Notes under the pieces: generated by a model
Seen by the model: only the letters and a program-made list of their open reading frames with translations
Database searches by the model: none
Told to the model about the DNA's origin: nothing
Program-made: the position numbers and the translations under genes
Part shown: in pieces, positions 35,101 to 55,030 of the stretch
Position numbering within the stretch: the first letter of the stretch is position 1
Layout of the letters: each line of letters starts with the position of its first letter
From: Octopus vulgaris
Lineage: Eukaryota
Direction of reading: 5' to 3'
Assembly: GCA_951406725.2 (NCBI GenBank)
Contig: OX597841.1
Location: 14,136,001-14,200,000, forward strand
DNA: 64,000 nucleotides

Positions 35101-37656
35101 TCGTGGCCAATGGCTGGGGTCAGACCCAAATGTACTACCACCACCTCCTGAAACATCAGTCCAAAACGAATTCTCGAAAATGTCCCATATGTAAGTTGAC
35201 GTTCTTCAATTCTTTGGAAGTGAAGGCTCACCGGAAGAAGGACCACCAGTCGAACCAAAAGGGAGTAATAGGTGAGTGGCCCCAGCTTACAGTTTCGTTC
35301 TTTGGTTTTTGTTTGTTTTCCTTCGTCTTTCTTTTATGCTGTCATCTTATTGTCGTCATTGTCACCATCATCATTATTATTGTTGTCATCACCATCATCA
35401 TCACAATCAACATTGTTGTTGTCATTGTCGTCATCACCACCAGCATTATCTCCATCATCAACATTGTCGACACTATCATCATCATCATCATTGTTGTTGT
35501 CATCATTGTCACCATCATCATTATCATCATTATTATTATTGTTGTCATCATCATCATCATCACAATCAACGTCGTTGTCATCGTCACCATCATCATCATC
35601 TCCATTACCACCATTGTCAACATCATTGTCATTGTCGTCATCACCACCAGCATCATCTCCATCATCAACACTGTCGACACCATCATCACCATCATCATTG
35701 TCATCTTTATCACCTCGTCATCATCTCCATCACCGTTGTCAACACCATCATCACCATCATCATCTCCATCATCACCATTGTCAACACCATCATTATTATC
35801 ACCATCATTATTATCGTCATCATCATTGTTGTCATCATCATCACCGTTGTCAACACCATCATCACAATCGTTATTGTCTTCATCATCATCTCCATCATCA
35901 CATGTTGTCATCACCATCATCGTCATCAACATATGTAATGGCATTGTGTCTGTCTTTACGATCTGAGTTCAAATTCTGCTGAGGTCGACTTTGCCTTTCA
36001 TCCTTTTAAGGGTTGATAAAATAAGTACCAGTTGAATGCTGGGGGTTGATGTAATCAACTTACTCCCCCTCCCTTCAAAAATGCTGGCTTTGTGCCAAAA
36101 TTTGAAATCGAAATCTATATATCTATATATACTATCTGTCTGTATGTCTTTCTGTGTCCCTGCAGGTATGAATGCCAAGTACACGACCCCTGACCAAGTG
36201 ATGATAAAGGTACCGGAGCCGGGCGTGGCTCCGACCAAAGACAAAGGGGTGAAGTCATTGAATGCCCCTGCACTCACCAAAGTTATGGATTACCATGGAA
36301 TGAGGCTACCCGAATACATGGAGACTTATAAATGTATCGAATGCAAAGCCAACATGAACACTGCCGGACACTTCCGGTAAGGGACTTTATAATCATCCGT
36401 CGTCATCGTCATCATCATCGTTTTGTCATCTGATTTCACATTGCGTGTTTCGTCTCATTTCATCTCTTTCACTGTTCTCTTCTCGTCTCTTGTCTCATCT
36501 GATCGTGCATCAACTTGACACCATCATTGTCATCGATATTACTACCACCACCACCACAGCATCCATGCATCATCATCATCACCATTACCACAAACTCTAT
36601 TCATTTTTCTATTTTTCTAGATGTTTCTACATCACTGTACAGATTCCACTTCTCTTACTCCAGTACGATGTACATAGAGCATGCACATGTGTGTGTGTGT
36701 GTATGTGTACGAGTTTGTGTGTGTGCATGTATATGTGTATGTATATATATATATATATGTGTATTAAATGGATGTCTTATAAAACTGTTCCGCACATACA
36801 ATAACAGCCATACCAACAATCCAACATATGTCCATCATCAGCTGCCCCCACAGATATCATTATGGTTTCGACACCTGAACAGTACCACTCAATCCAGCAG
36901 TGCCAGCAGCACTAAAATAAAGTGTTGTTTGGGAACAAACATACATTAGATATCGCCACATTCAATCTTAATTCTAGGTAGGATTAAATACTAACATTCA
37001 ACAATGTCAGTGTTCATGCACGACAGAGTGTAAGTGTAAAGTATAAAAGCCATCTCAATATGGCTAACCACAAAGTGGGGGTGTTACTGTAGCTTTTTAG
37101 CCCCAGGAGATCATCGTCTCCAGCTGGCTTTAGACACCCTTTCAGTGCCCTTGAAGTATTTGCAAAGGGAGGCCATCCCTTCCTCGCAAGCCTGTCTTTC
37201 ATCGTGACCTGGTGGTTACCGCCCGTTGATAAGAGACAATAATCTCGAAACCGCGGTCCGGTGCGTATCACTCAGGCTTGCGAAGAAGGGATGGCCTCCC
37301 TTTGCAAATACTTCAAGGGCACTGAAAGGGTGTCTAAAGCCAGCTGGAGACGATGATCTCCTGGGGCTAAAAAGCTACAGTAACACCCCCTCCCCTATGT
37401 GGTTAGCCATGTTAAGATGGCTTCTATACTTTACATTATCGAGCGATTACTGTTTACATCTCGCTCTGAGATTTAATAATGCTTCGAGTGTAAGTGGTTT
37501 GAGAGAAAAACTGGGTGTACGTGGCATCGGATGTAGTTTCATGCAAGAGAATGCATGTGAATGAAGACAGTTGCATCACTAATTGCAGAGAGAATATGTG
37601 GAAGGGGTAGACTCAGAAATATGTGTGTGTGTGTGGACACGTGCACACACACACAT

Positions 37657-37687
<31 letters not shown>

Positions 37688-37828
37688 TATGGTTTAAGCA
37701 ACTTGTTGCAAAAAAACCCTTATTATAATTATATAATTTTTACCGAATATGGTCCTTTCCATACTGAAATACTACTAGGTGAAATTTATTGATTTTATTA
37801 AATTAATTATATTTCACTCTTTATCTGT

Positions 37829-37873
<45 letters not shown>

Positions 37874-39163
37874 CAGCGTGGAATTTTGTCAGTGAACAGG
37901 TCGTGGTCTCTAAGCGATGAAAATATTTTGACAAATTAAACTTAAATGTTGAAGTGAATCGAACGGTTTTTGTGTGTTTCTTAAATGGCTTATAAACACC
38001 TTCCACGCTGCAATTGCTTTCGTTCCAGTACACGATCTCAGATCAGGTCACTTGCTATGCAAGTACATCTCCGTAATATATACATACACACACACACACA
38101 CAATCGCACAGCCATGTATACACACAAATGGCTTACACATTCATTTACTCAAATACAAAAGTCATGCACACACATACACACACTAGTCAATATGCCTATG
38201 CTCCCACCGACCACTAACCTTCTTCTTAAAGTCGAATCTCTTGTTTTCCTTGCAGCAAATACATAGAATGCTCCATGTGCCGGTTTGCGACCAGCTGCAG
38301 CACTGCCTACGCTACGCACATGTTGGGCTTTCACTCAGGGCGACTCACTAACTTCAGCATTAGTATCCCCACCGAGAAGCCGATGGACGAACCCATGTAC
38401 TGTCTGTGTGGCTTCGGGAGTCGCCTCGGCAACAAAATTGGTAAGTCCTTCACTCTGTCTGTCTGTCTGTTTGTCTCTCTCTCTGTTTCTCCATGTCTGT
38501 TCAAACTCTTGGACCCAGTGTTCCTCGAGACAGGGATAGGGGTTAGTGATTGGGAAGGGCTCCAAGTAACAAAGAAACAAACCTGTATATCTTTAAAGCT
38601 TGCAATGGAGTTTTCGTTAAAACTTCCTGTGAAGGTTTAGAAGATTCTCGGTTGAACGAACAACTGGTCAACTTTAAATTTGGTTTGGTGCTGCTTTTGG
38701 CTTGTGTTCTTGAACAGCTAAAAGGTTTTTCAGATGTTCAGTTAAAATTTATTTTGATAATATTGTTCTGACATTTTTCGTCCATACTTTTATTAATTTT
38801 AATAACAGTAATAATAATGATAATATATGTGTGTATATGAATGAATATATATATATATACGGGAAAATTTACGAAAATAAACAAAAGACGAAGGCAGGTG
38901 GTGTACAAACAAATAAATGTATTACTATAGCACTCAGGAATAGAAAAAGTCTTTTACGTTTTGAGCCTACGCTCTTCTACAGAAAGGGACACAGAAAAAA
39001 CAAGGAGAGAAAAAAATGTGTGTAGTATATATATGTATATATTCTGAGAAGATATAATATGAATGAAAATAGGGGCTTGACTGCTATTTCTTAACATGTA
39101 AGGGTTTTTGCAACCTTCTCCATTATAATTGTATAATTGTGATTTATTCATAATTATAAACAC

Positions 39164-54631: not shown

Positions 54632-55030
54632 TCTTTATATATAAAAGTGAAGTTGTGTGTCTGTCTCCTACGATTTAGATTCCTAACTACTCCCACATTT
54701 TGTGGTGCAGTTTAACCAAAACCGGGTATCCTATAGTCGTGATTCATATCGAGCCCTTGTGGGTATTAGCGCGCGTCTACGATGAGTCTACAATTAAAAA
54801 AAAAATTTACCATAATTTTTCCGCATTTTTTATGCATTTTCGCTCGGTTTATATAAGGGAAGTAACTCTCTAAAAATGTATCATTAAATCTCAGAACGTA
54901 AAATGCTACAGTAACCCCCTCCCCCTTTGTGGTTAGCCATATTGAGATGGCTGTTATACTTTACATCTCTAAAAATGCTTATATAGTTATTTCCCTTACA
55001 AACCTGAGCAACGCCGGGCGATACTGCTAG
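54632..55030 (+). mobile_element. Non-autonomous Helitron
   Basis: A|TCTTTATATATAAAA 5' end; subterminal hairpin cctgagcaacgccggg; CTAG|T 3' end. Confidence 0.8.

Follow-up and report, generated by a model that had tools for sequence, protein, structure and literature searches.

The locus examined here lies within a 64,000-nucleotide stretch of the Octopus vulgaris genome (contig OX597841.1, positions 14,136,001 to 14,200,000 of the forward strand; hereafter the window), where an intron of a zinc-finger gene holds a long foldback with a hammerhead ribozyme in its loop. The question that it raises is whether this arrangement serves the host gene or was left there by a mobile element. The genomic comparisons described below make it quite probable that the locus holds a member of a family of non-LTR retrozymes, 355 nt in unit length, hammerhead-bearing and scattered through the genome, and that the foldback is a by-product of Penelope-like insertion, a reading drawn from DNA sequence.

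Results

Layout of the window element

The foldback comprises two pairs of inverted arms, one of 118 nt with 99% complementarity (37077-37194 and 37273-37390) and one of 47 nt with 87% complementarity (37035-37081 and 37389-37435), separated by a spacer of 78 nt. Its fold gave a z score of -27.6, and none of 100 shuffled sequences was equally stable. Together with the Rfam match reported below, these values confirm the inverted repeats, the spacer and the type I hammerhead recognized in the first-pass annotation. The target-site duplication, previously put at 9-11 bp, is the 11-bp sequence GAGTGTAAGTG at 37026-37036 and 37486-37496 (+), with the last 2 nt of the left copy common to the element end. 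A shared stretch of at least 11 nt was found by chance in 0.3% of random flank pairs (n = 600).

Alignment to the 355-nt unit resolved the element into two 5'-truncated copies. The inverted copy (37035-37194, minus strand) runs from unit position 305 to 146 and has its outer end at a fixed end site, termed A; the direct copy (37186-37484, plus strand) covers unit 61-354 and has its outer end at a second fixed site, B. Within the direct copy, the stretch pairing with the inverted copy forms the right arm (37273-37435, +), and the canonical type I hammerhead occupies 37208-37276 (+). Between end sites A and B, an unpaired tail of 49 nt (37436-37484, +) is present at one end only, in line with the one-end tail described for Penelope-like insertions (PMC8557442). 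The extent of the arms was thus as first annotated, and the tail, which lies outside the inverted repeat, is to be added to it.

Given that the left arm is identical over 154 nt to an unlinked copy of the family (L026), the window copy is considered to be young. At 37390-37446, 8 sites in the right copy (unit 261-316) are of another subfamily type, the remainder being of the L026/L147 type. An origin of the arms from two RNAs, with later homogenization, was rejected, the data fitting instead a brief stretch of foreign type within the right copy, for which a template switch or gene conversion are the candidate causes. A second insertion of the family is present in the window at 54868-54977. It measures 88 nt, has no hammerhead, and joins an inverted tail end to a direct piece ending at site A, between 11-bp duplications at 54868-54878 and 54967-54977.

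A dispersed 355-nt family and its sister

The genome searched consists of 2.8 Gb in 227 contigs. Of 2271 first-look candidates from a search with the window cassette, 40 were scored and yielded 104 matches; a 27-nt degenerate hammerhead-core pattern gave 421 exact matches genome-wide, with none for the reversed control. The repeat unit is 355 nt long with 44.8% GC, and in tandem loci its end joins its own start with no open reading frame between; partial tandems and full dimers were both observed (e.g. L055, L198 and L221). Five monomers that were checked had GC fractions of 0.42-0.45 and longest ATG frames of 21-69 amino acids. A Pfam search with a 118-residue stop-free frame of the unit gave no match at the cut-off, and the reverse transcriptase (RT) plus GIY-YIG frame of an autonomous Penelope-like element is absent from the 355 nt. 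When folded as a circle, the unit gave a z score of -4.7 against 60 shuffles, with a long stem capped by the hammerhead. The family therefore shows the sequence features by which non-LTR retrozymes are defined: a canonical type I hammerhead, tandem units within 150-450 bp (here 355 nt), non-coding sequence with GC under 50%, and target duplications longer than 4 bp (11 bp at the window locus and 8-14 bp at 13 of the 20 loci with ends at A and B considered below).

A sister family (L115-L144; 2615 first-look candidates), to which a unit-like neighbor of the Penelope-like locus L084 had led, is ∼75% identical to the 355-nt unit. Its hammerhead has the canonical CUGAUGA core and ACUCGAGU as stem III. 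In a separate repeat, the minus strand of L088 holds at about 2665-2745 a further motif resembling a hammerhead, in which ACUCGAGU is accompanied by an extended stem II region. Four loci on one contig (L010, L012, L013 and L017) share an identical insertion and duplication, represent a segmental duplication, and were later counted once.

The hammerhead ribozyme

The window hammerhead matched the Rfam model Hammerhead_HH9 at 37208-37281 (+) with 33.4 bits (E = 3.5e-6), so that the Rfam check proposed at the outset gave a match below the gathering score of 52. Its architecture is canonical, with a 6-bp lower stem I, an internal loop, an upper stem I and a 4-bp stem II (37233-37246, +). The core UUGAUAA (37226-37232) is a U3-A8 variant, stem III is the palindrome ACCGCGGU (37250-37257, +), and cleavage is predicted after C37258.

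Constraint on the ribozyme was assessed in two alignments, duplicate loci being dropped. Two of 48 rows were left out of alignment A1 (one with a 5-nt insertion and one truncated), and 4 of 17 regular-expression hits were left out of alignment A2 (two spurious, one truncated and one identical), which includes 10 hand-picked family-1 rows. In the young family (44 distinct copies), 96.3% of 924 hammerhead cells were paired, and double-sided changes occurred at only 2 pairs, no more than in shuffled alignments (479 of 500). When the family and the sister family were aligned jointly (23 rows), both-side changes were observed at 8 of 18 pairs, a result matched by 7 of 500 shuffles, although each such change may be a single event given that the rows are related. 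The expected covariation was thus recovered across the two families and not within the young family alone. Core pair 3-8 was C-G in 13, U-A in 8 and U-G in 2 of the joint rows. Given the covariation across family and sister family, it is likely, as judged from sequence, that catalysis is selected within the mobile element.

Stem III is palindromic in four spellings across the two families (ACCGGU, ACUAGU, ACCGCGGU and ACUCGAGU). Palindromic stems III are the mark of hammerheads that act, within tandem transcripts, in dimeric form (PMC4209133, PMC7229834), and conservation of the palindromes suggests that the octopus ribozyme is likewise dimer-dependent. The family data therefore support the Penelope link and the dimer-type hammerhead proposed earlier; the minimal, Penelope-type hammerhead proposed with them was wrong, the fold being canonical. 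By nearest-neighbor folding, the catalytic fold of the window copy lies 5.6 kcal/mol above the minimum. Given that this difference was 3.0-13.9 kcal/mol over all 23 copies tested, the energies do not rank copies, and active and inactive copies were not told apart by them. The pairing probability of upper stem I fell from 0.99 to 0.11 once inside the foldback. As a monomer, stem III of the window copy can form 2 bp with a tetraloop.

Two fixed end sites

Copies of the family terminate at two fixed sites 48 nt apart, A at unit 305-307 and B at about 347-355. Given that the first search had favored query-like copies, loci of the core-pattern list were taken in their order along the genome and the ends tabulated for the first 60, a sample that covers 69 of the 421 matches. 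Half of these loci (30) were inverted and half (30) were single-direction. Among the inverted loci, 20 had one end at A and the other at B, none had A at both ends, none had B at both ends, and 10 had one end elsewhere. All 20 loci with both ends at A or B sites thus carried one of each (binomial p = 1e-6 against 50:50). A possible A/A case, L033, lies beyond these 60 loci; its ends, at 307 and 313, both fall in the site-A bin. Thirteen of the 20 A/B loci had duplications of 8-14 bp that were not (TA)n, and the other 7 sit in (TA)n.

The single-direction loci ended at A in 16 cases, at B in 11 and elsewhere in 3. A shared flank of at least 10 bp was seen in 9 of the 16 single-direction copies ending at A and 1 of the 11 ending at B (L165-L224), a difference that boundary calls may explain. 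The arms differed at a median of 4 sites within a locus versus 14 between loci (47 pairs). The layout of the window copy, a two-piece foldback whose loop holds an intact hammerhead, was found at 6 of the 60 loci (L176, L192, L206, L208, L209 and L210), which extrapolates to roughly 35 loci genome-wide. The family accordingly displays the insertion form of Penelope elements, with an inverted 5'-truncated copy, partial tandems and a tail at one end.

Penelope-like elements in the same genome

Of 6136 candidate GIY-YIG matches in the genome, 150 were scored, and frames of 781 amino acids containing RT plus GIY-YIG were identified. Penelope-like families of the L081 and L084 types have two ends and a one-sided tail, as do the retrozyme copies; in L084 the insertion is likewise inverted, and a single arm bears the tail. 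The retrozyme tail is 48 nt long, compared with 30-40 nt published for Penelope-like elements. DNA similarity of Penelope-like elements to the 355-nt unit was found at none of 34 loci, a small sample of the 6136 candidates, and similarity to the sister unit at none of 54 loci.

The L081-L083 family has many intact copies, with a separate upstream frame (479 amino acids, two loci) before the 781-residue RT/GIY-YIG frame. The L081 type bears a minimal hammerhead with the same UUGAUAAG U3-A8 core as the retrozyme and a tail of about 40 nt. Copies of the family of L084 and L095-L114 are 99-100% identical over 1.1 kb and inserted in (TA)n, and this family has likely been active very recently. A 76% match beside the Penelope-like frame of L084 was considered as a pseudo-LTR and rejected as an unlinked neighbor, since in 39 of 40 scored copies the match was confined to the first 1100-1117 nt of the query and did not reach its unit-like part.

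The host intron

A GT-AG intron (36377-38255) carries the element in sense orientation and interrupts a match to PF25429 (zf-POGZ), in agreement with the sense orientation and the split finger annotated initially. The upstream exon (36166-36376, +) ends in the first half of the zf-POGZ match (profile 2-20, E = 0.011, weaker than the cut-off), and the downstream exon (38256-38440, +) contains the second half (profile 20-42, E = 4.9e-6). The splice sites are 658 and 770 nt from the element, which is nested in an older repeat, and eight further inverted pairs of at least 80 nt and less than 3 kb apart are present at 20-50 kb of the window. In contigs of four runs, the family and the flanking repeat were present in all, and no joint skipping the element was found among the matches listed.

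In work summarized in PMC2995048, cleavage by an intronic hammerhead left splicing efficient and a faster ribozyme blocked it. The lone window copy has no tandem partner of the kind that its palindromic stem III likely needs, and a 160-bp stem would keep the halves together after any cut. The hammerhead may therefore cut slowly or not at all, with splicing hardly affected. ADAR enzymes act generally on long, nearly perfect hairpins, and hyper-editing of double-stranded RNA is strong in octopus (PMC5625713). In the host pre-mRNA the foldback would be one such substrate among others, and editing of the window arms is plausible but generic.

Discussion

A purified Penelope-like protein, predicted to be a dimer, cuts and extends both target strands and starts at two RNA sites that bound the tail (PMC11167929). 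The ends of the octopus insertions can be accommodated by a similar scheme. Here, tandem retrozyme loci would be transcribed, and paired hammerheads would cut out monomers, which would circularize. A Penelope-like enzyme would nick both target strands about 12 bp apart, and RNAs of one kind would serve as templates for both cDNAs, one primed at site B and its partner at site A, before the truncated products were joined head to head. At the window locus, one cDNA would have passed the hammerhead and the other stopped short, so that the ribozyme was left in the loop. One-of-each ends are what paired priming at two tail-bounding RNA sites would be expected to leave. We lean, by a narrow measure, toward the view that the paired enzyme primes the two strands at different fixed RNA sites, one each, and that a retrozyme with no helper homology found carries sufficient signal for this.

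Other origins of the foldback have to be set against this scheme. The inverted arm could have arisen by another route, through LINE twin priming or because a plain retrozyme insertion was later rearranged into a foldback, and such a route would suit both the lack of a sequence-matched helper among 34 loci (54 for the sister unit) and the arms of a locus usually being of one subfamily, as arm-to-arm copying would also give. In LINE twin priming, however, the second priming site varies, whereas the inverted arm of the octopus copies has a fixed start, either 48 nt away from the other end or at that end itself, with one of each in 20 of 20 loci; moreover, a single duplication flanks both arms and autonomous Penelope-like copies in the same genome show the same form. 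Another route is accordingly judged unlikely. Long near-perfect inverted repeats with a target duplication also recall a MITE or foldback DNA transposon with a captured ribozyme, but 30 of the 60 loci have no inverted arm and hence no fixed terminal inverted repeats, the junction varies between copies, the tail lies outside the repeat on one side, and the duplication length ranges over 8-14 bp. Such a transposon is largely refuted by the single-direction and tandem copies and is exceedingly improbable. That the unit might be the truncated pseudo-LTR of an unsampled autonomous Penelope-like element, and not a self-standing circular-RNA element, is suggested by Penelope-like insertions being mostly 5'-truncated terminal repeats and by the small part of the 6136 GIY-YIG candidates covered. 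This too is very unlikely, given that unit 355 joins unit 1 directly in tandem loci with no intervening frame, that the longest ATG frame in five monomers is 21-69 amino acids, and that the hammerhead is canonical here versus minimal in the sampled Penelope-like element.

The proposal made at first annotation, that the host has co-opted the window copy, with hairpin and loop ribozyme tuning the splicing, editing or decay of the zinc-finger pre-mRNA in the way suggested for the conserved amniote ribozymes in introns, draws on the sense orientation, the intron splitting a domain, the intact core with a monomer stem III able to form 2 bp and a tetraloop, the strong hyper-editing of octopus double-stranded RNA (PMC5625713), and the domestication of retroelement hammerheads described for amniote intronic ribozymes (PMC6155905). 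Against it stand the identical layout at 6 of 60 sampled loci, the youth of the copy with its L026-like left arm, its insertion within an older repeat far from both splice sites, the fall in upper stem I pairing from 0.99 to 0.11 in the foldback, the 8 other inverted pairs of at least 80 nt in 20-50 kb of the window, and the efficient splicing that persisted despite intronic hammerhead cleavage (summarized in PMC2995048). The idea of a device by which the host links isoform output to cleavage or editing is thus unsupported, and co-option of any such kind appears highly improbable. The window locus itself is an ordinary young insertion of the retrozyme family; it is the family-level end rule that is worth following.

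Non-LTR retrozymes of animals and their proposed Penelope origin have already been published (Cervera and de la Pena 2020, PMC7229834; Li et al. 2026, 10.64898/2026.07.22.740005). The octopus family resembles them in its canonical type I hammerhead, its non-coding unit of about 350 nt (mussel repeats measure 350-390 bp), GC under 50%, tandem and solo copies, long target duplications and coexisting Penelope-like elements; it differs in the U3-A8 core variant, in inversion of half of the sampled insertions and in its two fixed ends. Inverted copies or a tail are undescribed for retrozymes in the main texts of these two papers (the word "inverted" has no hits in the former and one, within a reference title, in the latter), whose supplements may list such a family. 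Similarly, a literature search found no cephalopod retrozyme, inverted tailed retrozyme insertion or one-of-each rule, although published supplements may hold such a family.

With EN+ Penelope-like elements (Craig et al. 2021, PMC8557442; Frangieh et al. 2024, PMC11167929), the family shares partial tandems, an inverted 5'-truncated copy, a one-end tail, two start sites, AT-rich targets and a hammerhead upstream of the tail. In contrast to them, the octopus unit has no RT or GIY-YIG frame, its hammerhead is canonical, its tail is 48 nt, and it has no sequence match to the sampled Penelope-like loci. The hammerheads of amphibian satellites and the axolotl retrozyme have a weak stem III with a palindromic loop and are reported to work best as dimers (PMC7229834, PMC4209133), whereas for the octopus ribozyme dimer dependence is suggested by the conserved palindromes. 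The conserved intronic hammerheads of amniotes (Rfam HH9) have the same type I fold, stem I motif and intronic sense-strand position; each is a single conserved locus, compared with hundreds of young octopus copies (421 core matches), and the octopus score is 33.4 against the HH9 cut-off of 52, which places the window ribozyme outside that class.

One-sided tails are already known for Penelope-like elements, and the inverted truncated copy with a one-sided tail of 30-40 bp is a Penelope hallmark whose origin is called undefined in the text of PMC8557442; the end rule bears on this origin, and one of each in 20 of 20 loci predicts sharply what the in vitro system described in PMC11167929 should show. 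The mover of animal retrozymes has so far been argued from co-occurrence and pseudo-LTR similarity, and the octopus insertions bear a Penelope footprint. Retrozyme insertions seed long intronic hairpins and are thus a likely source of ADAR substrates. If the proposed priming is correct, the family would attest, directly from the genome, to the use of Penelope machinery by animal retrozymes and would offer a minimal template on which to test it.
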